Part shown: positions 2,464 to 37,598 of the stretch, piece after piece | How positions within the stretch are numbered: position 1 is the first letter of the stretch | Layout: each line of letters starts with the position of its first letter | Source of the DNA: an uncultured Mycoplasmatota bacterium | GTDB lineage: Bacteria > Bacillota_I > Bacilli_A > RF39 > UBA660 | Length of the DNA: 64,000 bases | NCBI GenBank assembly: GCA_947571135.1 | Contig: CANOWY010000002.1 | Span: forward strand, 5,569-69,568 | Reading direction: 5' to 3' | Position numbers and translations under genes: made by a program | Notes under the pieces: model-generated | The model's input: the letters and a program-made list of their open reading frames with translations, nothing else | The model's database searches: none | Told to the model about the DNA's origin: nothing

Positions 2464-2614
2464 TTTTAACCTCCTTATATTTTTTCTTATTAAATCGTTT
2501 ATCTTTTAAATTCTTCTATTTCATCATCATTACAAGTTGGAAATGACATTTTATTCAATAATAAATTCATATCTTTTTCTATTTCTTTTTCAGTTCGTTT
2601 ATCAATTTTTATTT

Positions 2615-3118: not shown

Positions 3119-3136
3119 TTAAACCCTCCACTTTTT

Positions 3137-4495: not shown

Positions 4496-4566
4496 TCCAA
4501 TCGACTTGTATTATAGCATAATTTCCTAAATTCTTGTATAGAATTAGTCTTTATTTCTTTTATAGG

Positions 4567-5448: not shown

Positions 5449-5581
5449 AATAGTCCTTCCCCTTTGATTTTATCTATTATATATTATCTTTTTAAATTTT
5501 CAAGAAAAAATGAAAAAAACAAAAATTGGAAAATAAATTTTTTTATGGTATACTGAAAATATAATGAAGGAGGGTTTTAGT

Positions 5582-6565
5582 TTGAAATACATAAGACCGT
5601 ATAAAATAATACATTGTGAAGAATTTTTAAGGGAACCAGCGCAAGATACATTTAAAGAAATAGAAAAATTAGAAGTTTCTAAAATTATTTTGAGAGGAAA
5701 AGGAACAGGAAGAAGTACACTTTTAAATTATATGCAAGAAAAGAAAGCAAATACAGAACAACCATTTATGCTTTTAAATTTTAATAGGGATAATTTACCT
5801 TCAGATACAAAAAATTTTTTAGCAAAAGAATTTTTTGAACATTATTGGGAGATACATTTTACCAGAGAAATCCTTTGGTATATTAAAAAATATCATGAAT
5901 TAACTTATCAAAGCAAATTCTCACAATATGGTGAGGCTATACAGAATTGTTGCCAAGAAATAGTTGATTTACTAAATAGTTTAGTTTTTACAGATAGTTA
6001 TTGCTTACCAAAATTATATACTTCTAAAGAAATTAGTGGAGAAATATTAGATAAATTTAAAAAACTAATGCATATTGAATCAATAGAACTTGGTAGTAAT
6101 CGTTTTGATAGTATTAATAATAGTGATGAATTAGCACAAAAGATTTTATATTCTTATTTTGATTTATTTGATAAAACTATTATTGAAGTAGATGATGAAA
6201 GTTTACCTGAATATTGGTATAAAACTTATTTTAATGAAAATAGTGAACTCATTACTTTCACTCCATATTCTATCGAGTATAATAAAAATTTAGAAATTGT
6301 TTATGCTATTATAAAAAAGAGAATTATGGGATATAATGCAACAATACCATTGGATTGGTTAAATTATGACACTTTAAATTTATTAGTAACTTGTACAAAT
6401 GGAAATATAAAAATAATTTTAGATATTGTAAATGAAATAATTTTAATATGGGAAATAAATGACAGAATTAGACGAGAAGATATTAAAGATACAATTCATG
6501 AAGTTTTATTAAATAATAGAAGTAGAAAACTTATGCGTAGTAAACAACCAAAATTATATTTATAA
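5582..6565 (+). CDS. Hypothetical protein with a deviant P-loop (ILRGKGTGRSTLL). It is transcribed divergently from the kinase-like gene.
   Basis: The AAGGAGG RBS at 5567-5573 lies inside the ORF-track ATG codon, so the TTG at 5582 is the more likely start. The Walker-A-like GKGTGRST has Arg in place of the Lys, and no other motif was recognised. Confidence 0.4.
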   Translation: MKYIRPYKIIHCEEFLREPAQDTFKEIEKLEVSKIILRGKGTGRSTLLNYMQEKKANTEQPFMLLNFNRDNLPSDTKNFLAKEFFEHYWEIHFTREILWYIKKYHELTYQSKFSQYGEAIQNCCQEIVDLLNSLVFTDSYCLPKLYTSKEISGEILDKFKKLMHIESIELGSNRFDSINNSDELAQKILYSYFDLFDKTIIEVDDESLPEYWYKTYFNENSELITFTPYSIEYNKNLEIVYAIIKKRIMGYNATIPLDWLNYDTLNLLVTCTNGNIKIILDIVNEIILIWEINDRIRREDIKDTIHEVLLNNRSRKLMRSKQPKLYL

Positions 6566-6592
6566 TAAACTATTTAAAAACCCGCAGTTTTA

Positions 6593-7204
6593 TTAGTCTG
6601 TGGGTTTTATAATGACATGACGATTTGGCTCTTCGCCTTCACTAGTAGTTTCTACACCTTTAAAATCTGTTAATATGTTATGTACAATTCTTCTTTCAAA
6701 GGAATTCATATTCTCTAAAGTGGCTTCTACTTTAGTACTTCGAACTTCTCTAGCAATTTTCTTAGCCATGTATTCTAAGTTTTTTATTCTTTTTTCTTTG
6801 TAATTTTCTACATCTAAGGAAATAGTAATGTGAACACCATAAGTATTTAATACTTTTTGCTTTACTAATGTTTCTAAGGCTTTTAGTGTTTTTCCATCTT
6901 TTCCAATTAGGATAGCATTATTATCAGCATACATAGCAACATTTATTTTTCTATCTCGAATGGAACTTTCAAATTGAACTTCTAATCCTAAATTAATAAT
7001 GATTGCTTTTAGGTATTCTTTTATCTGTTCTACTAAATCTGTAAGAGTGATTGCTTTTATCTTATAATTGGATGATTTAAATAACTTGCCTGTTATTTCT
7101 TCTTCAACATGATAAATTATTTCACTTTCACTGGCATTTAATTTTTCTGTTGCTAATTTTATGGCCTCTTCTTTTGTTTTTGCTTCTAATTCTACTTCAA
7201 ACAT
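6593..7204 (-). CDS. jag: Jag/KhpB RNA-binding protein (Jag_N, KH and R3H domains)
   Basis: 203 aa, conserved directly downstream of yidC. It shows KH-like GKDGKTLKALE and an R3H region. Confidence 0.85.
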   Translation of the reverse strand: MFEVELEAKTKEEAIKLATEKLNASESEIIYHVEEEITGKLFKSSNYKIKAITLTDLVEQIKEYLKAIIINLGLEVQFESSIRDRKINVAMYADNNAILIGKDGKTLKALETLVKQKVLNTYGVHITISLDVENYKEKRIKNLEYMAKKIAREVRSTKVEATLENMNSFERRIVHNILTDFKGVETTSEGEEPNRHVIIKPTD

Positions 7205-7206
7205 TT

Positions 7207-8163
7207 CTAATTTCCTCTTTTCTTATTTCCCTCATTTATCTTTTTAAAAATAAAGTTTTGTATGACAACAAATCCATTCGTTACAATCCAATATAATGCA
7301 ATCGCAGTTGGTAGACTAAATGATGCAACGGAAATCATAATAATCATAAACTTTAAGGTAAGTTGCATTTGGCGTTCCATTTCATTGGTTGTTTTCTGGT
7401 TATGCATAGCATTTTTGAATGAAAAATAAGTGGATAAGATAATTAACACAATTAATAGAATATAAATATATTTTCCTTGCCCAATCCCAACCCAAGGGGT
7501 CATTCCAAGTTTCATTCCAAATAGACTATCTTCAAAAATTGCGGGCACACGATTGATGGCCTGTAAGAATGCAAAGAATAAAGGCAATTGAATAAAGGCA
7601 AGCAAACAGCCTGATACTGGATTAATTTTATATTTTTTGTATACGAGCATTGTTTCTTGACTTTTCATCATCATAGAATCACTATCGGTACGATTTTTAT
7701 ATTTCTTCTCAATTTTTTGTATTTCTGGTTGGGCTTTTTTCATATTTTCAGATTGTTCCATAGTTTTTTTAGAAAAAGGAAGTAAGATTAAACGAATTCC
7801 TAACCCAATTAACATTACAGATACTCCAAAGTTTTTAATAGCAAGTCCTAATTTCAATATTAACCATGCAAGTGGTTTCACAAATATTGATTCCCACAAA
7901 CTATGATACTTTATATCATTTGGTTTAAAACTGGCACACGTTGGCAAATCTTCTAATTTTGTTTTTAATTGGTCATTGTATTTTTCATACAGTTCATATA
8001 ATTCTTTTTCTTCTGGTTTACACAAAATATTATTTTGAAGACTTTGGCCTGTACTTTCATACGTTACTATACTTTTATCTTCTTTCAAATAGGTTTTATT
8101 TCCACAACCTGTTGTTAATAACAATACTGCAATTAGCAATACGAGTATTTTTTTTGTTTTCAT
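7207..8163 (-). CDS. yidC: Membrane protein insertase YidC/SpoIIIJ (lipoprotein form)
   Basis: 318 aa with a lipobox (LLTTGCG) and multi-TM YidC/Oxa1 core. It sits in the rnpA-yidC-jag synteny. Confidence 0.9.
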   Translation of the reverse strand: MKTKKILVLLIAVLLLTTGCGNKTYLKEDKSIVTYESTGQSLQNNILCKPEEKELYELYEKYNDQLKTKLEDLPTCASFKPNDIKYHSLWESIFVKPLAWLILKLGLAIKNFGVSVMLIGLGIRLILLPFSKKTMEQSENMKKAQPEIQKIEKKYKNRTDSDSMMMKSQETMLVYKKYKINPVSGCLLAFIQLPLFFAFLQAINRVPAIFEDSLFGMKLGMTPWVGIGQGKYIYILLIVLIILSTYFSFKNAMHNQKTTNEMERQMQLTLKFMIIMISVASFSLPTAIALYWIVTNGFVVIQNFIFKKINEGNKKRGN

Positions 8164-8486
8164 TTTATCTCCTTTATTAAATTTTCCAAATCACTTTTCT
8201 TTTGGAAAAATGATAATTCTACACAACTTTTCTTTATCATTATAATATAATCATGATTATTTGGAAAGTTTTCTTTTAGTTCATCTAGGATAGCACGTAA
8301 TTGTCTCTTTATCTTATTCCTTACTACGGCATTTCCAAGTTTTTTGGATACAGCAAGACCAAAGTGTCTTTTTCCTGTTTCTGTTTTCCTTATATATATA
8401 ACAAAACTTTGGTTTTTTATAAAAGGGGAATGTTTTATGATGTTATTGAAATCTATTTTAGATTTTACTACTTCATATTTTTTCAT
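8160..8486 (-). CDS. rnpA: RNase P protein component
   Basis: 108 aa and basic, with the RNR-like motif ...KLGNAVVRNKIKRQLR. It lies between rpmH and yidC. Confidence 0.9.
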   Translation of the reverse strand: MKKYEVVKSKIDFNNIIKHSPFIKNQSFVIYIRKTETGKRHFGLAVSKKLGNAVVRNKIKRQLRAILDELKENFPNNHDYIIMIKKSCVELSFFQKKSDLENLIKEIK

Positions 8487-8534
8487 AATATCCCTTCTTT
8501 CTGTAATATAGCAAAAAAACCACAGAAATGTGGT

Positions 8535-8663
8535 TTATTTCGTAATTAGGTTTTTACGGCCTTTTTTTCTTCTATTTTTTAAAATTTTCGTTTCTTTACG
8601 TGCAAAAAAACCATGTTTCTTTGCTTTTTTTCTTTTATTTGGTTGATAAGTACCTATTTTCAT
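8535..8663 (-). CDS. rpmH: 50S ribosomal protein L34
   Basis: Manual translation gives MKIGTYQPNKRKKAKKHGFFARKETKILKNRRKKGRKNLITK. It is not in the ORF track because it is shorter than the ORF-track length cutoff. Confidence 0.9.
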   Translation of the reverse strand: MKIGTYQPNKRKKAKKHGFFARKETKILKNRRKKGRKNLITK

Positions 8664-8885
8664 AAACGTTCCTCCTTAAATCTAAAGTCATTTTATTATA
8701 ATATTAGGCGAATCAAAATGTCAAGGAATAGATGATTCATTTTATGTTTTTATAAGGGAAAATATTTCTTTTTTATTTCGAGGCCCTTTTTTATTTTTAA
8801 GATTAAAATGTGAAGAAGTTTTTTTCTCATTCTAAATTATCAATAAGTATTAAAAATAGTTATTATAAAATAAATGTGCAAAATG

Positions 8886-9063
8886 TGTGCATAATCTTTT
8901 CTTTTAAATATTTGGGAAATATTGATTATAAACATTAATAACTTTATGTGGATAAATTTTATACACGATGTGAATAAAAAAATTAAAAATTTGTGGATAA
9001 TGTTGATAAATCTTAAAAAGTTAGTTATTATAATGGCGAATTGTGTGGATAACTTGTGCATAA
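8886..9063. promoter_or_regulatory. oriC DnaA-box cluster upstream of dnaA
   Basis: Perfect TGTGGATAA boxes (reverse complement of TTATCCACA) at 8947-8955, 8992-9000 and 9044-9052. One-mismatch boxes at 8886-8894, 8969-8977 and 9055-9063. All are in the same orientation within an AT-rich stretch. Confidence 0.8.
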
Positions 9064-9152
9064 CTATGTACATTTGCTTTTTCACTTTTCAATATTCAAT
9101 TAATGAGATACAATGAACTTACTTAGGGTAGCAGATAGCGGGGTGATGGAAT

Positions 9153-10502
9153 TTGCTGGTTGAAGAGTTATGGGGACAGTTTTTAGAGAAAGTCAAAAAT
9201 GAAATAAATTCTGCTTCTTATAATGCTTGGTTTAATGATTTGAAACTTGTGAATATTAACAGTGATTTTTTAACCATACAGGTGCCGATGGAAATTCATA
9301 AGAAAATTCTTGCCGAAAATTATTATTCTTTAATAGAAGATATTTTATTTAAACTTTCTGGGATTAATTATGATATTAAATTTATTTTAAAAGATGAAAT
9401 CCAAGAAGTAATTGTAGAACCACAAACAATTCCACAAAATCCCGTAAATGATTTTTGGGAAAGTAACTTGGATCAATCCCTTAATTTTGATAATTATATT
9501 GTGGGAAATACTAATCGGTTTGCTAAAGTGGCCGGAATGGCTGTAGCAGAACAACCAGGAAAAATTCATAATCCATTATTTATATATGGAAAAAGTGGAC
9601 TTGGAAAAACACATTTAATGCACGCTATTGGAAATTTCATAACAGAAAATACCAATAAAAAAGTGTTATACACAACAAGTGATATGTTTATGAACGAATA
9701 TATTGGAATTGCTGGGATGGAAAAAGGAAAATCAGCAATAGATTATTCTAATAATTTTAAAAATAAATATCGAAATGTTGACGTTTTGATTATTGATGAT
9801 ATTCAATATTTAGTAGGGGCAGATAAAACGCAAGAGGAATTCTTTTATACTTTTAACGCTCTTCATCAAGCCAATAAACAAATTATTATTAGTTCTGATA
9901 GAAGTCCAGATGATTTAAAGAAAATAGAGGAGCGCTTAAGAAGCAGATTTATGTGGGGACTTCCTGTAAATATTGACCCGCCAGACTTTGATTTACGCGT
10001 CCGAATTATTAAACAAAAGTTAAAGGGAAAAAGTATTCAAGATAAGGTGGACGAAGAAGTTATTGAATTTATTGCAAATAGTTGTCAAAATGATGTACGA
10101 TTTATTGAAGGAACTTTAAACCGGCTTATGGCATATACAGCAATGATTGTTCCAGAGCGTATTGATTTAGAGTTTGCTAACGAGGCTTTAAAAGATTATA
10201 TCAATGTGAATATATATTCTGATAACTCGATTGATAACATTCAAAAAGCCGTAGCAGACTTTTATAATATTACTATAGAAGATTTAAAAGGGAAAAAGCG
10301 AAGTGCGAAGATTGCTTATCCACGGCAAATTGGGATGTATTTATCTAGAATGCTTACAGATGAAACTGTATCTAGAATTGGCATGCAATTTGGTGGTAGA
10401 GATCATTCTACTGTTATTCATGCTTGTGATAAAATAACAGATGACTTAAAAAGTAATAAAAAATTGGAAGAAGAAATTAATATGATTAAGAATAAATTTT
10501 AA
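9153..10502 (+). CDS. dnaA: Chromosomal replication initiator DnaA (TTG start)
   Basis: 449 aa with an AAA+ core (GKSGLGKTHL, Walker B VLIIDDIQ) and a C-terminal DnaA-box-binding domain. Confidence 0.97.
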   Translation: MLVEELWGQFLEKVKNEINSASYNAWFNDLKLVNINSDFLTIQVPMEIHKKILAENYYSLIEDILFKLSGINYDIKFILKDEIQEVIVEPQTIPQNPVNDFWESNLDQSLNFDNYIVGNTNRFAKVAGMAVAEQPGKIHNPLFIYGKSGLGKTHLMHAIGNFITENTNKKVLYTTSDMFMNEYIGIAGMEKGKSAIDYSNNFKNKYRNVDVLIIDDIQYLVGADKTQEEFFYTFNALHQANKQIIISSDRSPDDLKKIEERLRSRFMWGLPVNIDPPDFDLRVRIIKQKLKGKSIQDKVDEEVIEFIANSCQNDVRFIEGTLNRLMAYTAMIVPERIDLEFANEALKDYINVNIYSDNSIDNIQKAVADFYNITIEDLKGKKRSAKIAYPRQIGMYLSRMLTDETVSRIGMQFGGRDHSTVIHACDKITDDLKSNKKLEEEINMIKNKF

Positions 10503-10665
10503 AGTTGTGAATACATGTGCATAACTTGTAAGAAAAAAGTAGAGGTTATTCACAGGAAATAGAAATAAAAATATGGGAAAATAAAGGAAATAACGAAGTT
10601 ATAAACTTTATCCACTGTATAATAAATAAAATAAAAAAAAGAACAAATAAGAAAGAAGGAAAATT
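10503..10665. promoter_or_regulatory. Second DnaA-box cluster and AT-rich putative unwinding region between dnaA and dnaN
   Basis: One-mismatch boxes TGTGCATAA (10517-10525), TTATTCACA (about 10546) and TTATCCACT (10608-10616), followed by an A/T run at 10620-10645. This bipartite arrangement is typical of Firmicutes oriC. Confidence 0.6.
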
Positions 10666-11784
10666 ATGAAATTTGCAATTGATAAAAATATTTTGCTTGA
10701 AAATTTGAATCATGTAATAAAAGGAGTATCTACAAAAAATGTAATTCCTGTATTAAATGGAATTAAATTTGAATTAAACAATAATGGATTATCTTTAACC
10801 GCAAGTGATAGTGAACTTACAATTAATTCTTTTATTGAAGCAAAAGAGATTAAGAATATTGAAAGTATTGGAACTATTATTATTCAAAGTAAATTTTTGG
10901 TGGATATTATTAGAAAACTCCCAGGAGATGTGGCTAACTTTGAAGTTATCGACAGATTAAAGATTAGAATTTATACGGAAAATGCCCAATTTAATTTGAA
11001 TTGTTTAGATGCTAATGATTATCCTAATTTAAAAATGGAAGAACACAAAGACCCTATTATTTTAAAAGGAGATCTTTTGAAAACACTTATTAATCAAACT
11101 GTGTTTGCTATATCTACACAAGAATTAAGGCCATTACTTACAGGTGTAAATGTTACAATTGTTGGAGATGAACTTGTATTTATTGCAACGGATTCTTATC
11201 GACTTGCGAAGAAGAATATAAAACTTGAAAATGCGATTGAAACAGATATTAACATTGTTATTCCAGGAAAAAACATTATAGAACTTGAAAAAATTATTAC
11301 AGATGAAGAAAACGTAGAAATGCATATTTTTAATAATAAAGTATTGTTTAAGTATAAAAATATTAAGTTTCAAACGAATTTGTTATCAGGAACTTATCCA
11401 AATACATCGAATTTAATTCCAACTGACTATGCTATTATCGTAAAGGTACGAAAAGATGAATATGCATCAAGTGTTGATAGAGCCGCCCTTTTAACCCAAG
11501 GAAAAGATAAGAATATTATTAAAATGAAGTTGGAAAATAAAGTCATGACGATTAATTCTTATGCGTCTGAAATTGGAAAGGTAGAGGAAAAATTAGCAGT
11601 AGATACAGAAGCAAGTTCTAGTATTGATATTTCTTTTAGTTCTAAGTATATGTTGGAGGCATTAAGAACCATAAAAGAAGAAGAGATATTTCTTTTAATG
11701 ACAGATGATGTGAAACCTATTGTAATTAAATCTGTTAGTGATGAATCTTTAATCCAACTTATTTTACCAATCAAAACTTATTAA
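10666..11784 (+). CDS. dnaN: DNA polymerase III beta sliding clamp
   Basis: 372 aa with three beta-clamp domains, downstream of dnaA. Confidence 0.95.
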   Translation: MKFAIDKNILLENLNHVIKGVSTKNVIPVLNGIKFELNNNGLSLTASDSELTINSFIEAKEIKNIESIGTIIIQSKFLVDIIRKLPGDVANFEVIDRLKIRIYTENAQFNLNCLDANDYPNLKMEEHKDPIILKGDLLKTLINQTVFAISTQELRPLLTGVNVTIVGDELVFIATDSYRLAKKNIKLENAIETDINIVIPGKNIIELEKIITDEENVEMHIFNNKVLFKYKNIKFQTNLLSGTYPNTSNLIPTDYAIIVKVRKDEYASSVDRAALLTQGKDKNIIKMKLENKVMTINSYASEIGKVEEKLAVDTEASSSIDISFSSKYMLEALRTIKEEEIFLLMTDDVKPIVIKSVSDESLIQLILPIKTY

Positions 11785-11870
11785 TTTAGGTTTTTTTCTT
11801 TTTTCGACAAAATTTCTTTCTCATTGAAGTTATTATAGAGAACAATTTTTAACAGGTGGGAGGTGGTTTT

Positions 11871-12317
11871 GTGGATAAGTATGAAATTAACGATAAGACA
11901 ATTGCTCTTTATTCTCTTACGAATAAAACAAGAGTGTATGAAGAAGATCGATCTTTTGTTGTGGATGCTTTAGCAAGTGAAATTATGGAAGATAGTTGTA
12001 CCTATTTTGGTAGTTCTTTGGAAGGAAGAAAGAAAGGAACTCATAATTTGATAGGGGTATCTTATAAGGCGCCAGTTATCGTAGAAGAAAGTAATGATAT
12101 GATTTTTTTTCCTACAACAAGTCCTAAAGTAAAATCTTGTTCATGGTTACGCTTTAATAAAATTAAATGTTATTATTACAAAAATAATCATTTAGTAGTA
12201 GAGTTTAAGAATGGCGATAAAATTTTACTTAATATTTCTTATGATATGATTAATAATCAAGTTTTACGTGCTACTAGATTAGAATCAGTTTTAAGAGAAA
12301 GAAAAATTCAAAAATAA
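11871..12317 (+). CDS. ComK-family transcription factor-like protein
   Basis: CTYFGSSLEGRKKGT, IFFPTTSP...CSWL and ISYDMINNQVLRATRLESVL align with the B. subtilis ComK motifs CRFFGSSYAGRKAGT, FLFPTLS...CGWI and ISYNSFENQVYRTAWLRTKF. The likely start is the GTG at 11871, after a GGTGGGAGGTGG RBS. Confidence 0.6.
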   Translation: MDKYEINDKTIALYSLTNKTRVYEEDRSFVVDALASEIMEDSCTYFGSSLEGRKKGTHNLIGVSYKAPVIVEESNDMIFFPTTSPKVKSCSWLRFNKIKCYYYKNNHLVVEFKNGDKILLNISYDMINNQVLRATRLESVLRERKIQK

Positions 12318-12434
12318 AAGTGATTTCATGTAAAAAATGCTACAATAGAGTTTATAAATATGATATAATTTTAATAGGTATAGGAGTACATAAATACCTA
12401 TTATTTTATTATATGAGCGTAAAAGAGGCATAAT

Positions 12435-13526
12435 ATGCAAATACAGGAATTGAAATTACTAAATTTTAGAAATTATGAAAAGATACACATTACATTTGCA
12501 GACCACTTAAATATCATTTATGGAAAGAATGGAAGTGGCAAAACAAATTTAGTAGAGGCAATTTATGTACTTGCTCTTTCTAGAACTTTTAAACAAGCCA
12601 ACGATAAAACTTTGATTCGGAATGGAACTTCTTTAACTAAAATAGAAGGTATAGTGAATGCTAATTATCAAAATACTTATAAAGTAATTCTAACGCCAGA
12701 AGGTAAGAAAGTGAAAATTGATAACAATAAAATCACAAAGATAAGCGACTATATTTCTAAAATTAATATTGTTTTATTTAATCCAAATGATTTAAAAATG
12801 ATTAAGGATACGCCAAGTATAAGAAGAAAATATTTGAATATTGCAATTTCTCAATTAAATGTAAGTTATTTAAGAAAATTGAATGATTACAATAAACTGA
12901 TTAAAACAAGAAATGCTTATTTAAAAAAAATGTATTTGAATGGAAATTCTCTTCAATCTTATATGGATATTTTAACAGAGAAGATGGTAGAGATAGGATT
13001 AGAGATTTATGAAATACGTAAAAATTATATTTCTCTTATGAATAGTCATATAAGTTCTGTCTATAAAAGAATTGCAACAGAAGGAATTTTAAAGGTAAAT
13101 TATACTAGTGATTATGAAAATAAAACTAAAGAAGAGTTGATGATGGTTTATAAAAAGAATCTAAGTCGAGATTTAACTTTTGGAAAGACAAGTTTTGGAA
13201 TTCATCATGATGATTTAGAATTCATTTTAGATGATTTGCCTTTAAAAGAATATGGTTCAGAAGGACAACAAAAAAATGCTATCATTTCTTGGAAATTTAG
13301 TGAAATTACCATTATTCAAAAAGAGAAAAATGTAACTCCAATACTTATTTTAGATGATTTATTAAGTGAACTTGATATGGATAAGATTCATAATATTTTT
13401 ACGTTTATTGAAAATGATATTCAAACTTTTATAACAACAACAGAGATAGAGAAGGTGTCCTCTTTGTTGGAGAACGAAAAATATAAAAAGATTCATGTTA
13501 GTAATGGAAAACTAGAGGAGGTATAA
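12435..13526 (+). CDS. recF: DNA replication and repair protein RecF
   Basis: 363 aa with an SMC-like N-terminal Walker A (GKNGSGKTN) and the conserved position after dnaN. Confidence 0.95.
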   Translation: MQIQELKLLNFRNYEKIHITFADHLNIIYGKNGSGKTNLVEAIYVLALSRTFKQANDKTLIRNGTSLTKIEGIVNANYQNTYKVILTPEGKKVKIDNNKITKISDYISKINIVLFNPNDLKMIKDTPSIRRKYLNIAISQLNVSYLRKLNDYNKLIKTRNAYLKKMYLNGNSLQSYMDILTEKMVEIGLEIYEIRKNYISLMNSHISSVYKRIATEGILKVNYTSDYENKTKEELMMVYKKNLSRDLTFGKTSFGIHHDDLEFILDDLPLKEYGSEGQQKNAIISWKFSEITIIQKEKNVTPILILDDLLSELDMDKIHNIFTFIENDIQTFITTTEIEKVSSLLENEKYKKIHVSNGKLEEV

Positions 13527-13529
13527 AAA

Positions 13530-15452
13530 ATGGATGAAAAAGTAACACATTATAATGATGATGATATTCAAGTATTAGAAGGACTAGAAGCCGTTCGAAA
13601 GAGGCCAGGTATGTATATTGGTACCACGAGTGAAAAAGGGCTTCACCATTTAGTTTGGGAAATTGTCGATAATGCAATTGATGAAGCCTTAGCCGGATAT
13701 TGTGATGACATCGAGGTTGTGATTGGTAAAGGGAATACGATAACTGTTAAAGATGATGGACGTGGAATGCCAACTGGTATCAACAAAAAAACGGGGTTAT
13801 CCACAGTAGAAACGATTTTTACAGTGTTGCATGCTGGAGGTAAATTCGGTGGCGGTGGCTACAAAGTGAGTGGAGGACTTCATGGTGTAGGTGCCAGTGT
13901 TGTGAATGCCTTATCAACTTGGCTTGAGGTAACTGTTTATCACGATGGTAAAATATTTTATCAAAAATTCCAAGATGGTGGAAAACCTGTAGAAGAATTA
14001 AAAGAAATTGGTACTTGTGAAGAAAATAGGACAGGAACTACCGTTACGTTTAAGGCAGATCCAGAGATATTCACAGAAACAACTGTTTATAATTATGAAA
14101 CTTTAGCGAAACGTTTACAGGAACTTGCTTTCTTAAATAAAGGAATTCGTATTATTTTAATTGATGAGCGTGAAGAAGAGAAGAAGAACGAGTTTTTGTA
14201 TAATGGTGGAATTATTGAATATGTGCAGATGTTAAATAAAAATAAGAAACCAATTCATGAAAATGTAATGTATTTTGAAGGTACAGAAGATGGAATAGAA
14301 TTAGAAGTTGCTATGCAATACAATGATTCTTATAATGCTAATGTGTATAGTTTTACCAATAATATCAATACATACGAAGGTGGAACACATGAAGATGGTG
14401 TTAAAAGAGCATTAACTCGAATTATTAATAATTATGCTAGAAATAATAAAATTTTAAAAGATAATGATGAAGCGTTAACAGGAGAAGATGTTCGTGAGGG
14501 TTTAACTATGATTATTTCTTGTAAACATCCAGATCCTCAATTTGAAGGACAAACAAAAACAAAGTTAGGAAATGCAGAAGTAAGAAAAATAGCCGATGAT
14601 GTTTTTAGTGAAGGTTTTGAACGTTTCTTGATGGAAAATCCAAATGAAGCAAAAACGATTATAGAAAATGCAAATACAGCAGCGAGGGCTAGACTTGCTG
14701 CGAAAAAGGCAAGAGAACTTACAAGAAGAAAATCTCCACTGGATACGATTAATACATTAGGCAAGTTAGCAGATTGTACAAGTAAGGACGCTACGATATC
14801 TGAAATATTTATTGTCGAAGGGGATAGTGCGGGAGGAAGTGCTAAAAGTGCCAGAATTCCAAAAACTCAAGCCATACTTCCTTTAAGAGGTAAGATTTTA
14901 AATGTAGAAAAAGCAAGACTTGATAGAGCATTATCGAATGAAGAAATTAGAACCATGATTACAGCATTTGGTACTGGTATTGGTGAGGATTTTGATATTG
15001 AAAAATTAAGATATCACAAAATTGTTATAATGACTGATGCCGATGTGGATGGTTCACATATTCAAATCTTATTATTAACATTGTTTTATCGTTTCTTTAG
15101 ACCGATTATTGAAGGTGGGTATGTGTATATCGCTCAACCGCCATTATTTAGAATTACGCATGGTAAAAATATTAAATATGTGCAAGATGAAGTTGAGTAT
15201 GAAGAATATCGTGCTACCTTACCTGCAAGTGCAAAGCCTACAGTAAATCGTTTTAAAGGGTTAGGAGAAATGAATGCGGAAGATTTACGTGATACCACAA
15301 TGAGTATTGAAAATCGTGTCTTAAGAAGGGTGACAATTGAAGATGCTATGGCTGCCGATAAAATAATATCCGAATTCATGGGTGATGATGTATTGCCACG
15401 TAAAGTATTTTTGGAAGAGCATGGTCACGAATATACGGAATTGGATGTTTAG
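13530..15452 (+). CDS. gyrB: DNA gyrase subunit B
   Basis: 640 aa with a GHKL ATPase domain, a Toprim domain (EGDSAGG) and a PLRGKILNV motif. Confidence 0.97.
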
Positions 15453-15464
15453 GAGGGTTAAATT

Positions 15465-18023
15465 ATGGATAAGATAGTAGAAAATAATATTACAGAAGAG
15501 TTTAGAAAATCCTTTGGTACTTATGCAATGAGTGTAATTGTCGATCGTGCTTTGCCAGACTTAAGAGATGGTTGTAAACCTGTTCACCGCCGTATTTTAT
15601 ATTCTATGTATGAGGCTGGTTATACTCCTGATAAACCGTATCGTAAGTGTGCGAGAATTGTCGGAGATGTAATGGGAAAATATCATCCACATGGGGATAC
15701 TTCTATTTATGATGCTATGGTTCGTATGGCTCAAAACTTTAGTTTTAGACATATGTTAGTAGATGGTCATGGTAATTTTGGTAATATGGATGGCGATGGT
15801 GCTGCTGCCATGCGTTATACCGAAGCAAAGTTATCAAAAATTGCATTGGAAATGGTTAGAGATATCAACAAAGATACAGTGGATTTTGTACCTAATTTTG
15901 ATGAAACGGAACATGAACCTAAAGTTTTGCCTAGTAGATTTCCAAATATTTTAGTCAATGGGACGATGGGTATTGCTGTAGGTATGGCAACGAATATTCC
16001 ACCACATAATTTAGGAGAAGTTATTGATGGATGTGTTGCTTACATTGATAATCACGACATTGATGTAGAGGGCTTAATGCAATATATTAAGGGACCAGAT
16101 TTTCCAACAGGTGCTTCAATACTTGGAAATAGCGGAATAAGAAAAGCCTATGAAACAGGAAAAGGTTCTATTACCATTCGTGGACAAGCCGATATTGAAG
16201 AAGTTAATGGTAAAACAAGAATTGTTGTATCTTCATTGCCTTATCAAGTAAATAAAAGTGAGTTCCAGTCTCGTATTGGAGAACTTGTTCGTGATAAAGT
16301 TATTGATGGAATTAGTGAATTGCATGAAGAATCTAATTTAGAAAATCCAGTGCGTGTAGTTATCTACATTAAAAGAGATGCGAATGCAAATGTAGTTTTA
16401 AATAATCTGTATAAATATACACAATTGCAAAATTCTTATGGTATTAATTTACTCATGATTGATCAAGGTTCTCCTAAGATATTAGGGCTTAAAGATATTA
16501 TTTCTAAGTATATCGATTATCAAAAAGAAATTATTATTCGTAGAACAAAATATGATTTAAAGAAGGCAGAAGAAAGAGTTCATATTTTAGAAGGTTTAAA
16601 GATTGCTTTAGATCATTTAGATGAAGTTATTAAAACGATTCGTGAGTCTGCTACAGATGTTATTGCAAAAGAACAATTGATGTCTAAGTTTGGTTTAGAT
16701 GATATCCAAGCCAATGCAATACTTGAAATGAAATTGCGTCGTTTAACAGGTTTGGAAAGAGAAAAGATAGAGAATGAACTAGCCGAACTTTTAAAAACGA
16801 TTGATGAATTAAGAGCCATTCTTGCTAGTGATGAAAAAGTTCTTGCTATTATTAGAGAAGAACTATTAGAAATTAAAAATAAGTATGCAGATGAGAGAAG
16901 AACTAACATTGATATGTCTGCTATTGAGTATATAGAAGATGAATCATTAATTCCAGTGGAAGATATAATGATAGCACTTACTCACAATGGTTATATTAAA
17001 CGTACAACATCAGATACATTTAAATTGCAAAATCGTGGTGGAGTAGGTATTAAAGGAATGAATACTAACGAAGAAGATTTTGTTGAGCATTTAGTGAACT
17101 TATCCACACATGATTTTGTGTTATTCTTTACGAATAAAGGAAAAGTGTATCGCTTAAAAGGATATGAAATTCCAGAATTTAGTCGTCAATCTAAAGGTTT
17201 ACCAGTTATCAACTTACTTCAAATTGAAAAAGAAGAAAAGATAAATTCTATATTAAGTGTAAAAAGAGAAGATAATGCGAAATATTTATTATTTGCGACG
17301 AAGCAAGGTATTGTAAAACGTACTAGTATTAATGAATTTGAAAATATTCGAAACAATGGAAAGATTTGTATTAGTTTAAGACCTAATGATGAGTTAATTG
17401 CTGTTAAGAAAACTACTGGAGAAGATTGTGTCCTTCTTGGTTCTGATAATGGACGTATGGTTAAGTTTATAGAAGATGAGATACGTGTTATGGGAAGAAC
17501 TGCTAGTGGCGTAAGAGGTATTAACTTAGATGGTGGGGAATGTATTGGGGCAGAAATTGCTACTGATACTGATTCTTTAATTATCGTAACGAAGCAAGGT
17601 TATGGTAAACAAACTATAATTAGTGATTATCGTCAAACGAGACGTGGTAGCAAAGGTGTAAAGGCATTAAATATTACTGAGAAGAATGGACCGATGGCTG
17701 CGTTTAGATTAGCACAAGAAAATAGCGATTTGATTATTATTACCAATACTGGAATGGTTATTCGTGTCCCTCTTGATCAAATTAATACTCTTGGAAGAGT
17801 TACACAAGGTGTAAGAGTTATCAACTTAAAAGGTGAACAAGAAGTTTCAAATATAAGTTTGGTAGAGAAGACACCGGAAATAACAGAAACTGAAGTACAA
17901 GACGAAAATATTTCAATAGAACAAACTCAAGTTGAATCTGATACTGTTACTTCAAATGAAAAAATCGAGAGTGATATTCCTGAAGTTGAATTAAGTACAG
18001 AAGTGAAAGAAAACGAAAATTAA
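15465..18023 (+). CDS. gyrA: DNA gyrase subunit A
   Basis: 852 aa with the active-site region [10 protein letters not shown] and a C-terminal beta-pinwheel ending in an acidic tail. Confidence 0.97.
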
Positions 18024-18645: not shown

Positions 18646-18674
18646 TTGAAAAAAAGTTAGAAAACTGGTATTAT
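18646..18674 (+). promoter_or_regulatory. Sigma-A-type promoter (TTGAAA-N17-TATTAT) for the putative SRP RNA
   Basis: The -35 TTGAAA at 18646-18651 is separated by a 17-nt spacer from the -10 TATTAT at 18669-18674. Confidence 0.5.
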
Positions 18675-18679
18675 CTATT

Positions 18680-18757
18680 TGTGCAACGAATATATTGTAA
18701 CCTGGTCAGAATCGGAAGATAGCAGCCACATCAGTCTCTGTTCGTGTGCACTTTTTT
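18680..18757 (+). ncRNA. ffs: Miniature signal-recognition-particle RNA (4.5S/scRNA-like, domain IV only)
   Basis: CCUGGUCAGAAUCGGAAGAUAGCAGCCAC matches the universal SRP RNA domain-IV consensus (GGUCAG...CC-GGAA-GG...AGCAGCC, with a GGAA tetraloop). It is closed by a GUGCAACGAA / UUCGUGUGCAC helix and followed by a U-run at 18752-18757. It sits in the tadA-scr-dnaX neighbourhood, as in Bacillus. Confidence 0.55.
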
Positions 18758-18778
18758 ATTGATTAAAGGTGGAGTAGT

Positions 18779-28584: not shown

Positions 28585-29223
28585 TTATTTATACTGGTTA
28601 TCTACAAGAGTGAAGCCCTCTCCTAATTGACTAAAAAAGTTTTGTAATTTTGCTAAAATGCTTGTTTCTAAGTCCTGTTCGTTTTGAATTGTATTATTTT
28701 TATCTAGTTCAATTAAAATAGGATTTTTCATTTGTTCTAGGAAGGATGGATTTTTTTGAGAAGTGATAATTTCTATTTTATTTGGTTTATTTATTAACCG
28801 TTCGTAAGCATTATTTTTGATTTCTTTTATTAATTCTCTTTTAGACATATTTTTAGTGATACATACATTTATATAATAATTTCGTTTGTTTTCTTCTTGA
28901 ATGGGTAATAATTCGCGATAATGTGACCAACTCAAAGTGAGACCCAGTGGGGCGCATTTTGGAAACACTAAATAAAATTGTCTGAATTTTCTTAAATTAG
29001 TTCCATCATATCCTTTTCCATATTTCTTTGTATATTTAATACTCCATTCTTTGATTAATCCATTTCCGTACTTAGCACGTTCATTGCCTCCTTGTGCTTC
29101 TATGAGCAATCTACCAATATTCCAATAATTTTCTATAGCACTCTGATTTTCTTCTAAGACTCTTCGTTTTTTACTTACTTCATTCTTCTTTATGTAAGTT
29201 TCTATTTCGTTAAAATAATTCAT
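28585..29223 (-). pseudogene. Truncated DUF1016/YhcG-family protein. Only the N-terminal domain is present and the PD-(D/E)xK nuclease core is missing.
   Basis: NYWNIGRLLIEAQGGNERAKYGNGLIKEWSIKYTKKYGKGY...FRQFYLVFP matches the YhcG N-terminal domain. The ORF ends at ...LGEGFTLVDNQYK, right where the nuclease core normally begins. Downstream there is only AT-rich non-coding DNA (28229-28584). Confidence 0.5.
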
Positions 29224-29357: not shown

Positions 29358-29880
29358 TTTGAAGTCAACAGGTGTAATTCGTAGAATTGATGAGTTAGGA
29401 AGAATTGTTTTACCAAAAGAAATACGTAGAAATTTAGGAATACGTGAAGGAGAAAATTTAGAAATATTTGTAGAAGAAGATAAAGTAATTTTAAAGAAAT
29501 ATTCAAAAATTAAAGATTATAAGGAAACTATTCATAAAATTGGTAATTTAGTAACACAAGTATATGAAATGAATTTGATAATTACAGATCGAGATAAAAT
29601 TGTATATGCTAATAAATTTTCAACTTATGAAGAGACGGATTTAGATATGAAATTTATTCAGTTGATACATAATCGTGAAAGTGTAGTAAAAAATGATATA
29701 CAAACATATAAATTAAATGGCGAAGAAAAAAGTGGTTATTATTTAATACAACCTATTATATCTTCTACGGATTGTTTAGGATTACTTATAATATTTAATG
29801 AAAAATCTATTAAAGAAGAGAATCTAACTTTACTTAAATTTGTAGCAAATCTTATCGTAAATAAGGTTGATATTTCTTGA
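29358..29880 (+). CDS. spoVT: Stage V sporulation protein T (AbrB-N plus GAF domain regulator)
   Basis: LKSTGVIRRIDELGRIVLPKEIRRNLGIREGENLEIF aligns with B. subtilis SpoVT MKATGIVRRIDDLGRVVIPKEIRRTLRIREGDPLEIF, and a GAF-like C-terminal half follows. It lies downstream of mfd, as in Bacillus. The TTG at 29358 is the more likely start. Confidence 0.8.
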
Positions 29881-29899
29881 TGTGGTAAAAATTATGTGT

Positions 29900-30115
29900 T
29901 AATATACAGATAATTAATGAAGAAGGAAAGAGTAGTGCTTTTTCTTTATGAGAAGAGAGTTTACGTTTGGTGAGAGTAAATATAAAGATGGGTATGAACA
30001 TGGTTCTGGAGTTAAATCGGATACTTCACGTTATGAAGAAAAGTGCATGATTAAAATCATGAATTAAGGTGGTACCGCGGATATTGTTTCGCCCTTAATT
30101 TATGATTTTTTTGTT
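29900..30115 (+). promoter_or_regulatory. T-box riboswitch leader (probably Met-specific)
   Basis: The canonical T-box sequence AATTAAGGTGGTACCGCGG sits at 30062-30080. A terminator helix (AATTAAGG/CCTTAATT) is followed by a T8 run. Stem-I-like GA-rich elements and AUG triplets followed by A lie at about 30000-30010. The leader is upstream of the SDR-metG operon. Confidence 0.7.
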
Positions 30116-30126
30116 TTTAAGGAGGA

Positions 30127-30868
30127 ATGATGATGAATAAAGTAGTTATGATAACAGGTGCTCGTCGAGGTTTAGGACTTGCATGCGCTAAAAAATTTTC
30201 TGAGGGGGGGGTACTGCGTTGTATTAAATGGTAGAAGTCATGAAGAGGAAATGCATGTTATTTCTAAAGAGTTAGAAGAAAAATATTCTATAGAGTGTCT
30301 TGTTTGTATGGGAGATATTGCAAACGAAGAGGATGTAAAAAGAATGCTTGATGAAGTACAAAATAAATTTGGAAGATTGGATGTACTCGTTAATAACGCT
30401 GGGATTGTTTATGATATGGAAATAGAAGAAAGGGCAACAAGTGTATTTGAAGAAACCATGCATAATAATGTTACAGGTACTTATCTAATGTGTAAGTATT
30501 TTGGTAATTTCATGAAGAGCCAAGATTTTATGACGAGAATTATTAATATATCGAGTACAAATGGTATTAATTACAATATTCCAACAAGTATTGATTATGA
30601 TGCTTCTAAAGCGGCGATAAATTCTTTAACAAAAAACTTTGCATTAGAATATGCTCCAAATATTTTAGTGAATGCTATAGCGCCTCATTGGATAAATACG
30701 GAAATGAATGTTTCTTTATCTAAAGAAGAATTGGAAGAAGAGACATCAAAAATATATTTGAAGCGATTTGCAGAACCCGAAGAAATTGCAAATTTTGTAT
30801 ATTTTTTAGGTAGTGAAGAAAATACTTATATAACTAATGAAATAATGGTTATTTCAGGTGGATATTAA
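30127..30868 (+). pseudogene. SDR-family oxidoreductase (FabG-like) interrupted by a +1 frameshift in a G8 homopolymer. It may be phase-variable or a sequencing error.
   Basis: Frame 1 reads MMMNKVVMITGARRGLGLACAKKFSEGG and then hits a stop at 30232. Frame 2 (30179-30868) continues YCVVLNGRS...NAGIV...YxxxK. The frames switch at the G run 30204-30211, and deleting one G gives an intact ~246-aa SDR. Confidence 0.7.
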
Positions 30869-30886
30869 AAAGAAAAGAGGAATATT

Positions 30887-32410
30887 ATGAAAGAGAAATA
30901 TTATATATCAACAGCGATTGCTTATACTTCAGGAAAACCTCATATTGGAAATACGTATGAGATTGTTCTTGCAGATAGTATTGCTCGTTATAAAAGATTA
31001 AAAGGATACGATGTTTATTTTCAAACAGGTACAGATGAACATGGAGAAAAGATTGAATTAAAAGCCAAAGAAGCCGGAATTACTCCAAAAGAGTTTGTGG
31101 ATACTGTTGCAAATGAAATTAAAAGTATTTGGGACATTATGAATACGAGTTATGATAAATTTGTACGTACGACAGATGAACATCATGAAAAAATCGTTCA
31201 AAAAATATTTAAGAAGATGTTTGATAAGGGAGATATTTATTTAGGTGAATATAAAGGCCTTTATTGTACACCTTGCGAATCTTTTTGGACAGAAAGCCAA
31301 CTTGTGGATGGGAAATGTCCTGATTGTGGAAGAGATGTGGAATTAAAAGCAGAAGAGGCATACTTTTTTAAATTAAGTAAGTATCAAGACAAATTAATAG
31401 AATATATTGAGAACCATCCAGAATTTATAGAGCCTGAATCACGTAAAAATGAAATGGTTAATAATTTTTTAAAACCAGGATTGCAAGATTTATGTGTATC
31501 TCGTACTTCTTTCGATTGGGGAATACCTGTTGATTTTGATTCTAAACATGTTGTTTATGTATGGCTAGATGCTCTAACCAATTATATTACAAATATTGGG
31601 TATGACCCAGATGGCTCGAGTGAAGAATTTAACAAGTGGTGGCCAGCAGATTTACACTTGATTGGAAAAGATATTATTCGTTTTCATACTATTTATTGGC
31701 CATGTTTCTTAATGAGTTTAGAATTACCTTTACCAAAACAAGTTTTTGGGCATCCATGGCTTATTATGAGTGATGGAAAGATGAGTAAAAGTCGAGGGAA
31801 TGTGATTTATGCTGATGATTTAGTGAATGAATTCGGAGTAGATGCAGTGCGTTATTATGTATTGCATGAAATTCCTTTTGCTTCCGATGGAGTATTTACA
31901 AGAGATTTATTAATCGAAAGAGTTAATGGAGATTTAGTCAATATTTTAGGTAACTTAGTCAATCGTACAATTTCAATGGCTAAAAAATATTTTGAGAGTC
32001 ACTTAGAAAATAAAAAAGTAGTAGAAGACGTAGATACGGATTTAATATCTATGATAAATACTTTAGAAGAGAAAGTGGAAAGTAGAATGAATAAATTGGA
32101 GATTGGTTCTGCTATTGATGAGATATTTGATGTATTACGTCGTAGTAATAAATATATCGATGAAACTACTCCTTGGGTACTTGCAAAAGAAGAAGATAAG
32201 AAAGATAGATTAGAAACTGTACTTTATAATTTGATAGAAGCAATACGTGTGTGTGCAGTCTTTATAGAACCATTCTTGCCTGAAACTAGTGAGAAGATTT
32301 TAAGTCAGATTAATTCTAGTGATAAATCATTTCAGTATAATGAAAATATGGTATATGATTTGAATGAAGCAGAAATTTTGTTTCAAAGAATTGAAGTAGA
32401 AAAAGAATAA
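30887..32410 (+). CDS. metG: Methionine--tRNA ligase (short form without C-terminal tRNA-binding extension)
   Basis: 507 aa with HIGH-type motif (KPHIGNTYE), KMSKS, and zinc-knuckle cysteines CTPC...CPDC. Confidence 0.95.
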   Translation: MKEKYYISTAIAYTSGKPHIGNTYEIVLADSIARYKRLKGYDVYFQTGTDEHGEKIELKAKEAGITPKEFVDTVANEIKSIWDIMNTSYDKFVRTTDEHHEKIVQKIFKKMFDKGDIYLGEYKGLYCTPCESFWTESQLVDGKCPDCGRDVELKAEEAYFFKLSKYQDKLIEYIENHPEFIEPESRKNEMVNNFLKPGLQDLCVSRTSFDWGIPVDFDSKHVVYVWLDALTNYITNIGYDPDGSSEEFNKWWPADLHLIGKDIIRFHTIYWPCFLMSLELPLPKQVFGHPWLIMSDGKMSKSRGNVIYADDLVNEFGVDAVRYYVLHEIPFASDGVFTRDLLIERVNGDLVNILGNLVNRTISMAKKYFESHLENKKVVEDVDTDLISMINTLEEKVESRMNKLEIGSAIDEIFDVLRRSNKYIDETTPWVLAKEEDKKDRLETVLYNLIEAIRVCAVFIEPFLPETSEKILSQINSSDKSFQYNENMVYDLNEAEILFQRIEVEKE

Positions 32411-34189: not shown

Positions 34190-34257
34190 AGTCTTTCTCT
34201 CTTCTTTTTTATTATAAAGAAATATATTTTATTTGCAAGAAAAAACGAAAGTCTAGA

Positions 34258-34468
34258 AATTTACTTCTTCTTTTATTTTTGCTATATTGTTTTAGGAGGG
34301 ATACTTATGTTTTGTAATACACATTGTCATTTGTTTTAGGAATATTATGAATATATTGATGAAATTATAAAACTTGCAAAAGAACATGGGGTAACTCGTA
34401 TGATTGTAGCGGGTTGTGATGATAAGTCAAATAAAGAAGATCTTTAGTAGAAAAAGAAGAGATTTATA
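34258..34468 (+). repeat. Degenerate ~210-bp duplicate of the tatD promoter, RBS and first ~58 codons (copy 1)
   Basis: It is about 90% identical to 36802-37017. It carries a 1-nt deletion (creating TAG) and a 5-nt deletion, so it encodes only a broken TatD N-terminus (MFCNTHCHLF*). Confidence 0.8.
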
Positions 34469-35822: not shown

Positions 35823-35851
35823 TTGACAGAAGGTCGGGGGGGGGTTATAAT
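35823..35851 (+). promoter_or_regulatory. Consensus sigma-A promoter TTGACA-N17-TATAAT whose spacer contains a G9 homopolymer (candidate phase-variation switch)
   Basis: The -35 is at 35823-35828, the spacer GAAGGTCGGGGGGGGGT at 35829-35845 (G9 at 35836-35844), and the -10 TATAAT at 35846-35851. The gene start is at 35880. Confidence 0.6.
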
Positions 35852-35879: not shown

Positions 35880-36803
35880 ATGTGTAATCCAGAATTAAAA
35901 CAAGATATTTCTATGGCTACTAATATTATTCATGATAATAGTAATTATAAAGATAAGTATATAAAACATTGTGTCATTCCTGCTAGAGGAACAGAAAATG
36001 TGACTGAGTTATTTTCAAAAATAGAGAGTTCTTTCGAAAAATCTCTTATTGTAACAGGAAGTGGCGATCAAGCGTTAGAGGCTATCTTATATGGTGCAAA
36101 AGAAATTCATTCTTTTGATATAAATGCTCTTGCTAAATATGGTAGCGCTTTAAAATTTGCGGCGATTGAGGCATTGGAATATAATGAGTTTTGTGCATTT
36201 TATACTAAGATGTTTCCTACACAGTTATATAAAAAAATACGTGAGTTTTTAAAAGGAAATTTTTTACTTTTTTGGGATTGCATTTTTGATTATGCTTATA
36301 ACTTTGATGTTTACCATTCCCTTTTCAATGCTGATGTTCATGGAAATTTAACAAAGTTTGGTTTTTCTATTTATGATAATAAAAAAGCATATTATCAAAT
36401 TAAAGATAGATTGGGTAAAGTTGCTATTACTTATGCAACGTGTGATCTTTTAGATATACGTTCAAAATTTATGGAAGAAAATTCTTATGATTTTGTTTAT
36501 CTTTCTAATATATTTTATTATATTAATCAAACGCCTGAAATATTTAGTGATTTTATTTTACAAAATATATATCCTCTTTTAAAAGAAGATGGGGAAATGA
36601 TATTGCATTATTTATATAGTGTTTATGGAAGAAGTGATGCTATTTTTAGATCTATTTTAGAAGACATTATTTATGGAGATCAAGACATAAAAGATATTGA
36701 AGAATTTGGTAAGTATTTGAATATGAAGAAATACATTATTGAAAGTTCTGGCTATGGTTTTGGATATAAAGATAAAGATGTTGCTCTTTCTTTGAAGAGG
36801 TAA
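35880..36803 (+). CDS. Hypothetical protein, possibly DUF3419-like (BtaA-N-like SAM-dependent transferase fold)
   Basis: 307 aa. The motif block LIVTGSGDQALEAILYGAKEIHSFDINALAKYGSALKFAAIEALEY resembles the DUF3419 N-terminal signature. The assignment is tentative. Confidence 0.4.
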   Translation: MCNPELKQDISMATNIIHDNSNYKDKYIKHCVIPARGTENVTELFSKIESSFEKSLIVTGSGDQALEAILYGAKEIHSFDINALAKYGSALKFAAIEALEYNEFCAFYTKMFPTQLYKKIREFLKGNFLLFWDCIFDYAYNFDVYHSLFNADVHGNLTKFGFSIYDNKKAYYQIKDRLGKVAITYATCDLLDIRSKFMEENSYDFVYLSNIFYYINQTPEIFSDFILQNIYPLLKEDGEMILHYLYSVYGRSDAIFRSILEDIIYGDQDIKDIEEFGKYLNMKKYIIESSGYGFGYKDKDVALSLKR

Positions 36804-36851
36804 ATTTACTTCTTCTTTTGTTTTTGCTATATTGGTTTAGGAGGGATACTT

Positions 36852-37598
36852 ATGTTTTGTGATACACATTGTCATTTGTTTCGAGAGTATTATGAAGATG
36901 TTGATGAAATTATAAAACTTGCAAAAGAAAATGGGGTAAATCGTATGATTGTAGCAGGGTGTGATGATAAGTCAAATAAAGAAGTATTATCTTTAGTAGA
37001 AAAAGAAGAGATTTATGGGACACTTGGCATACATCCAGAAGAAGTAGAAAATTTTAAAGAGAGTGATTTGAATTTTATTGAAGAAAATTTACAGAATAAA
37101 AAAATTATTGCGATTGGAGAAATTGGCTTGGATTATCATTATGGAAAAGAAAATAGGAAAGATCAAATTCAATTATTTGAGTTACAACTTGCTTTAGCAG
37201 AGAAATATCATATACCAGTAGTGGTTCATTCTAGAGAGGCTACTTTAGATACAATTAATTCTTTAAAAAAATATAATGTTAAAGGTGTTATTCATTCTTT
37301 TAGTGGGAGTTTAGAAACTGCTAAAATTTATATAGAGATGGGTTTTTTACTTGGTGTTAATGGTGTAATTACATTTAAAAATTGTAATTTGAAAGATGTC
37401 ATAAAGGAAATTGATTTGCATAATATTGTATTAGAGACTGATTCTCCTTACTTAACTCCTGTACCTTTTCGTGGAAAAAGGAATGATTCTAGTAAAATTT
37501 CAGTAATTGCTGATTATATTTGTGAGTTAAAAAATGTTTCACGTGTAAAGTTAAGTGAAGTTACAAATGTAAATATTAAACAGTTTTTTGACATTTAG
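36852..37598 (+). CDS. tatD: TatD-family metal-dependent DNase/hydrolase
   Basis: 248 aa with CDTHCHL at the N-terminus and conserved His/Glu/Asp positions. It is in the yabD position after metG. Confidence 0.9.
   Translation: MFCDTHCHLFREYYEDVDEIIKLAKENGVNRMIVAGCDDKSNKEVLSLVEKEEIYGTLGIHPEEVENFKESDLNFIEENLQNKKIIAIGEIGLDYHYGKENRKDQIQLFELQLALAEKYHIPVVVHSREATLDTINSLKKYNVKGVIHSFSGSLETAKIYIEMGFLLGVNGVITFKNCNLKDVIKEIDLHNIVLETDSPYLTPVPFRGKRNDSSKISVIADYICELKNVSRVKLSEVTNVNIKQFFDI

Follow-up and report, generated by a model that had tools for sequence, protein, structure and literature searches.

A run of eight guanines divides an SDR oxidoreductase gene between two reading frames in the DNA analysed here (64,000 nucleotides, hereafter the window), and the locus raises the question of what such a break in an otherwise intact gene means. 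The initial annotation set four readings side by side, namely a translational phase-variation switch, a programmed frameshift, a recent pseudogenisation and a homopolymer sequencing error. To decide between them we considered the gene itself, its operon, the length of the tract in the same strain and in related species, and the selection that acts on the downstream frame. The split gene comprises the following features.

30133-30234, + strand: upstream (5') part of the SDR gene, read in frame 1, from the list of open reading frames, with the Rossmann TGxxxGxG motif as ITGARRGLG
30204-30211, + strand: the G8 homopolymer, GGGGGGGG, an OFF length (the in-frame lengths are G7 or G10)
30212-30868, + strand: downstream (3') part of the SDR gene, read in frame 2, with 218 codons and a stop, NNAG and the S-Y-K catalytic residues (YDASK)

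Read from the sequence, the tract lies in the context ttttctgaGGGGGGGGtactgcg, 71 nt downstream of the start codon used by homologues. The earliest in-frame ATG of frame 1 is at 30127; the start in homologues is the third ATG, at 30133, and the N-terminal start of the intact ones is MNKVVMITGARRGLG. The frame 1 product is MMMNKVVMITGARRGLGLACAKKFSEGG, followed by seven residues out of frame, and it ends at TAG 30232-30234, 21 nt past the tract; within it MNKVVMITGARRGLGLACAKKFSEGG is the glycine-rich NAD(P)-binding N-terminal part of an SDR. Frame 2 is open over 30179-30868, and the remainder of the SDR begins in it at the Tyr codon directly after the tract. With one G removed, the two pieces join as a single full-length classical SDR of 244-246 aa, with FSEGGYCVVLNGR as the junction peptide in place of the frame 1 tail FSEGGVLR.

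Residues 11-246 of the repaired protein match the Pfam adh_short_C2 profile from end to end (positions 1-235 of 236, E 2.8e-52), with scores of 178 bits for PF13561 (cut-off 27) and 164 bits for PF00106 (cut-off 26.6), and its alignment with the FabG structure 2p68 has no gap over the frame junction. It carries TGxxxGxG, NNAG and S...YxxxK, the motifs of a classical SDR (adh_short / adh_short_C2). In an NCBIfam search it scored below every equivalog cut-off, including those for FabG (3-oxoacyl-ACP reductase), where TIGR01830 gave 183 bits against 297.75 and NF004198 gave 175 against 296. The layout described in the initial annotation therefore stands: the G8 is at 30204-30211, the gene is in two intact pieces whose frames switch exactly at the G run, as the open reading frames and motifs indicate, deletion of one G gives a continuous protein of about 246 aa, and the gene sits between a T-box (Rfam RF00230) and metG (NCBIfam PRK12267).

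29911-30099, + strand: T-box leader controlling the operon (RF00230, 110 bits, gathering score 93)
30887-32410, + strand: metG, methionine--tRNA ligase of 507 aa (PRK12267, 760 bits, cut-off 598)

The specifier codon of the T-box is AUG (Met) at 30000-30002, an assignment made because the ATG of the motif GAA-N-ATG-G is invariant, while N varies, across 17 related T-box leaders (16 orthologous leaders in one tally). The T-box also holds a terminator-like hairpin at 30077-30092. metG starts 18 nt past the SDR stop with its own ribosome-binding site, AGAGGA, and lies directly downstream of the SDR in 16 of 16 orthologous loci in genomes, as well as in the additional contigs that were checked; the T-box is upstream of the SDR in most of these 16 loci. 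To our knowledge, pairing with metG is not a known context for FabG. A promoter and terminator scan of 29800-31000 found 7 promoter-like sites, against 6.5 in shuffles, and the T-box's terminator alone, and thus does not support a promoter of metG inside the operon.

In some relatives the stretch between the Met T-box and the SDR encodes a NUDIX hydrolase, a 368-aa kinase of the APH family and small proteins (L114, 637-1456; L122, 720-1400; and upstream of the SDR in L115, L116, L127 and L133), so that the accessory genes of the T-box/metG operon form a variable cassette. Methylthioribose kinase, too, has the APH fold, and by this analogy the presence of the kinase in the operon hints at a methionine-related role. 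In the window, a 212-aa DUF1016/YhcG-like open reading frame at 28585-29223 on the - strand aligns with only about the first 50 of the 157 positions of a PDDEXK nuclease domain and may be a truncated remnant.

With eight bases inside an open reading frame, the tract is a simple-sequence repeat of the hypermutable type (homopolymers of at least about 7). The window has a GC content of 27.5%, and in dinucleotide-preserving shuffles GGGGGGGG is expected 0.06 times per 64 kb; it is observed as 3 hits, in two tracts, a number reached in 0 of 100 shuffles. Shorter G runs fall away steeply, from 50 of G4 to 7 of G5 and 1 of G6, with no G7, and then come one G8 and one G9. The codons of the in-frame G7 form, GAG GGG GGG, are also rare choices in the open reading frames of the window, where GGG makes up 11.5% of Gly codons and GAG 18.3% of Glu codons, so that the chance of choosing this combination is about 0.002. 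It nevertheless persists in lineages with saturated synonymous sites, and the G tract is kept across species against codon bias.

Same-strain contigs from other samples were found with the exact MetG protein of the window, a query that is blind to the state of the tract, and then with the intact and truncated SDR products. Over 1.1-6.5 kb they match the window at 99.9-100% identity with the G tract as the sole indel; it is G7 in two of them, G8 in one and G9 in one, whereas the T8 and A8 runs of these overlaps show no length differences. Haplotypes defined from a table of 13 variable sites in the SDR gene distribute the tract lengths as follows.

Haplotype A (that of the window): G7 in L028 and L029; G8 in the window and L027; G9 in L026
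Haplotype B': G7 in L139; G8 in L126; no G9
Haplotype C: G7 in L133; G8 in L127-L130 and L132; no G9

All three SNP haplotypes thus carry both G7, which is in frame, and G8, which is out of frame, and since each shows both lengths there have been at least three separate length changes among sequences at most 12 substitutions apart. Such repeated change on distinct haplotypes is the signature of a hypermutable site. By DNA, the further cluster members are G8 in L126-L130 and L132, G9 in L131 and G7 in L133-L139. In the 90%-identity protein cluster, intact forms of 244/245 aa are on 14 contigs and OFF calls of 205 aa on 8, with matching ON/OFF pairs (P0125/P0121, P0127/P0124 and P0123/P0128), although an exact-protein look-up yields one state per query and these counts are therefore not unbiased frequencies of ON and OFF.

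Counted by independent assemblies, G8 is present in at least 8 runs, G9 in 2 and G7 in at least 10. The G8 and G9 forms come from SRR31850969, SRR31850955, SRR29836959, SRR34956996, SRR34956998, SRR34957002 and SRR34957017 and from the read sets of ERZ14864018 and ERZ14231470; sources of G7 are the read sets behind ERZ14864657 and ERZ15181934, together with ERR4096797, ERR4096799 and SRR24951074. Where the names of same-strain ENA contigs state a coverage it is only 2.5-5x, and the remaining same-strain contigs are short; individual tract calls therefore carry some risk. Public contigs often break at or within about 20 nt of these poly-G tracts (L005 at 1-85, the end of L002, the starts of L032, L033 and L131), which fits either mixed tract lengths within samples or poor read-through of poly-G.

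For a wider comparison, one genome per species was scanned, giving the 16 orthologous loci, all from uncultured Bacilli/'Tenericutes' MAGs, many with an MGBC label. At the same codon position, related species (68-96% identity in protein) have G7 to G11, and the majority are out of frame.

GA-G7: L002, in frame
GA-G8: the window, L008, L012, L114 and L122/L123, OFF (+1)
GC-G9: L009, OFF
GCT-G10: L014, OFF
GCC-G11: L007, OFF (+2)
A-G9: L118-L121, OFF
A-G8: L001 (3060-3085), in frame, GCT A G8 TAC (ARGGY) against GCT GA G7 TAC (AEGGY) in relatives
G5AG4: L004, tract interrupted, in frame

A G7 in orthologues had been proposed as a check, and it is found, in frame, in L002, while the other tract-bearing relatives are mostly G8-G11 and OFF. 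The A-G8 allele of L001 looks, from its sequence, like a former OFF G8 allele rescued through loss of a neighbouring preceding G. An uninterrupted tract of at least 7 is present in nine species-level genomes, in frame in 2 and out of frame in 6; the ninth, L005, is not judgeable because its contig begins with C-rich junk just upstream of the tract. Two in frame to six out is close to the one in three expected under free length drift, and the predominance of OFF among tract-bearing species representatives fits neutral length drift as well as it fits an adaptive switch. Many of the relatives' SDRs are called as open reading frames of 227-229 aa beginning MLKNLLRGGY, which is a shifted reading of AKKFAEGGY. 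More distant orthologues lack the tract and read SQGY, KEGY, KKGY or QNGY at the position. L015 (3200-3260) is the one among them that is not in frame; an A9 run in its EVKKKFG region carries a -1 frameshift, a second homopolymer lesion, independent of the first, in this SDR gene family. An orthologue-alignment scan of metagenome contigs returned only distant SDRs of at most 38% identity, and its pattern LDVLVNNA was too general to inform on the tract.

The downstream part of the gene is under purifying selection. Between orthologues, OFF-OFF pairs included, the 3' frame has a dN/dS of 0.09-0.25 (Nei-Gojobori, dS up to 1.6), and for the OFF-OFF pair L118 and L008 it is 0.09 at a dS of 1.6. The 218-codon downstream frame is unbroken at every OFF locus, and a second lesion in its 654 nt (27-30% GC) was found in none of them. 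The pattern of substitution shows that the gene has been in use throughout the history of the clade.

We think it probable that the G tract of the SDR is a case of slipped-strand phase variation of a known kind, and that the window has been caught in the OFF phase. The same-strain variants, their recurrence and the purifying selection on the gene make this the favoured one of the four readings. The G run would act as a hypermutable simple-sequence repeat within the 5' end of a working SDR gene, where slipped-strand mispairing in replication would gain or lose G's. With G7 (Glu-Gly-Gly, GAG GGG GGG) the full-length enzyme would be made, and with G8 or G9 the ribosome would leave the frame after residue 26-28 (homologue numbering) and stop at TAG 30232-30234 or earlier. 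The G8 of the window would then represent the OFF phase of a reversible, heritable on/off switch, ON being G7 or G10, and the switch would be common to a clade of uncultured low-GC gut Bacilli, 'Tenericutes' in some records. The OFF phase would be effectively null because the N-terminal residues with the cofactor loop are uncoupled from the remaining protein. We infer slippage as the mutational mechanism, as well as the reversibility and rate of the change within a clone and the loss of the protein in the OFF phase. Internal re-initiation was considered as a route to active enzyme and set aside; the ATG at 30251 has GAGGA only 2 nt upstream, and its predicted product would have no glycine-rich loop.

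The locus has the sequence properties of a contingency gene, in that tract length toggles between a full-length (G7, 244 aa) and a truncated (G8, G9) reading, the polymorphism recurs in near-identical strains, the intact gene is under purifying selection and the repeat is conserved across species. Typical contingency loci are of the surface or restriction-modification type, and this SDR, unlike them, is of the cytoplasmic metabolic enzyme type. We know of no selective rationale for switching it, and any adaptive benefit of the switch, like any polar effect on metG, is conjecture.

Beyond this reading, there is a small chance that the clade has undescribed conserved poly-G contingency loci, the SDR tract among them, and that the phase of the SDR tract, which lies in the first translated gene of the Met T-box/metG operon, possibly alters the expression of metG through the loss of about 650 nt of translation (by polarity or mRNA stability), or that OFF alleles are partly rescued by slippage, making the tract a graded dial and not a binary switch. 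That the out-of-frame SDR is still expressed by recoding, either by a ribosome shift on G GGG GGG G or by RNA polymerase slippage, with tract length tuning the amount, we regard as unlikely. Such recoding would account for the persistence of purifying selection although the majority of tract-bearing genomes are OFF, the run of GGG codons lets tRNA-Gly re-pair in any frame, and slippage at homopolymers is documented to rescue frameshifted genes (PMC5009743 for review; Citrobacter tssM, PMC4256274). However, programmed sites hold one fixed out-of-frame offset across orthologues, and this tract is often in frame and, where OFF, is shifted by +1 in some alleles and by +2 in others, which disfavours the programmed frameshift. 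Moreover, G8 would require the deletion of one base or the insertion of two, against the slippage preferences outlined in PMC5574713, where insertions in transcription are mainly at A/T runs and deletions are seldom at homopolymers. Some leakiness through ribosomal or RNA polymerase slippage on the G run is possible.

It is very unlikely that G7 is the true length everywhere and that G8 and G9 are artefacts of poly-G reading or assembly. The low named coverage of the same-strain ENA contigs and the contig ends at or near G tracts, which show that these tracts trouble assemblers, would be in keeping with such an error, but G8 with identical flanks is found in at least eight independent runs and samples, and G7 in at least ten, with both lengths on three SNP haplotypes. 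Systematic error would give a single answer per context, and random error would not repeatedly win the consensus. The T8 and A8-A10 runs and a G9 tract in a promoter show no differences in the same contigs, and species representatives on long contigs (56-95 kb) hold out-of-frame G9-G11.

Recent pseudogenisation, with the SDR under loss and the frameshift as its first disabling lesion, is already largely refuted and we give it hardly any weight, since, although most species representatives with the tract have the SDR out of frame and the tract-less L015 is frameshifted elsewhere in the gene, the 3' frame is intact in all OFF genomes, dN/dS is low even between OFF alleles with saturated synonymous sites, ON and OFF alleles share haplotypes, and the SDR-metG pairing is held clade-wide.

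Phase variation at the SDR tract had also been linked to the poly-G tract of a promoter further along the window.

35823-35851, + strand: promoter with a G9 spacer, made up of a perfect TTGACA (35823-35828), G9 (35836-35844) and a perfect TATAAT (35846-35851), with a spacer of 17 nt
35880-36803, + strand: gene for a 307-aa DUF3419-like protein of methyltransferase fold (Pfam DUF3419), downstream of this promoter

The link is supported in that the same promoter is found in two other species with the tract in the same spacer (L005, 2390-2425, G10 and a 17-nt spacer; L002, 5395-5430, G9 and a 16-nt spacer), so that the tract is conserved across species. No length variation was found in three same-strain copies, all of which are G9, and not every long G tract is therefore visibly variable. 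We regard the G9 as a candidate site of transcriptional phase variation. For the DUF3419-like gene the NCBIfam search gave no equivalog. A direct repeat of about 215 nt (92% identity) lies at 34257-34467, upstream of a 72-aa open reading frame, and at 36802-37016, where it runs from the end of the DUF3419-like gene into the start of a TatD-family gene. Elsewhere in the window, 598-18023 appears, from the order of the open reading frames and their N-termini, to be the chromosome origin region with mnmG, mnmE, jag, yidC, dnaA, dnaN, recF, gyrB and gyrA, and a small SRP RNA is at 18672-18767 (Rfam).

Annotations should list the SDR as phase-variable and OFF, and not as a pseudogene or as two open reading frames; in many public assemblies gene callers split it into products of 31-35 aa and 205-229 aa. 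Together, the SDR tract and the nearby conserved promoter tract suggest a small phasome in the genomes of this clade, open to direct mining from metagenomes. Since the mechanism is a textbook one, the general significance is modest.

Phase variation at poly-G/C tracts, in the so-called phasome genes, is documented in Campylobacter, Neisseria and Helicobacter (PMC6321876, PMC5084427, PMC2823697). The SDR locus resembles these systems in that a G/C homopolymer (about 7-11 bases) sits close to the 5' end of an open reading frame in a low-GC genome, one-base changes switch the frame, near-identical strains are polymorphic and the tract is conserved between related species, and in the companion tract in a promoter spacer. 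It differs in its host, an uncultured Gram-positive-type gut Bacilli/'Tenericutes' lineage, and in its gene, a cytoplasmic SDR within an aminoacyl-tRNA synthetase operon under T-box control and not a gene for surface structures, glycosylation or restriction-modification. For a metabolic enzyme the closest parallel would seem to be glpK of M. tuberculosis, where phase variation of a 7C tract, with drug tolerance, small colonies and reversion, has been shown experimentally (bioRxiv 10.1101/717272; PMC11898584). Both have frameshifts at a short homopolymer in a metabolic enzyme gene and recurrent, homoplasic length variants, but organism, gene and base context of the tract are different, and the SDR switch is proposed here from consensus assemblies.

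As a protein, the SDR is a full-length colinear match to the FabG-like classical SDRs (PDB 2p68; PF13561/PF00106) with TGxxxGxG, NNAG and Ser-Tyr-Lys, from which it is set apart by a score below the FabG cut-off of TIGR01830 and by its constant pairing with metG. With the slippage-rescued genes, such as tssM and those of Blochmannia (PMC3017870), it shares a homopolymer at the frameshift in a gene still under selection; those genes, however, have long A/T runs and a fixed genomic frameshift, whereas the SDR has a G run, frequent in-frame alleles and a variable offset. The kind of switch is therefore already known, and what is new is the host clade and the gene, an SDR fixed beside metG under a Met T-box, which adds an uncultured Gram-positive-type gut commensal lineage and a metG-tied cytoplasmic metabolic enzyme to the poly-G phase-variable loci.
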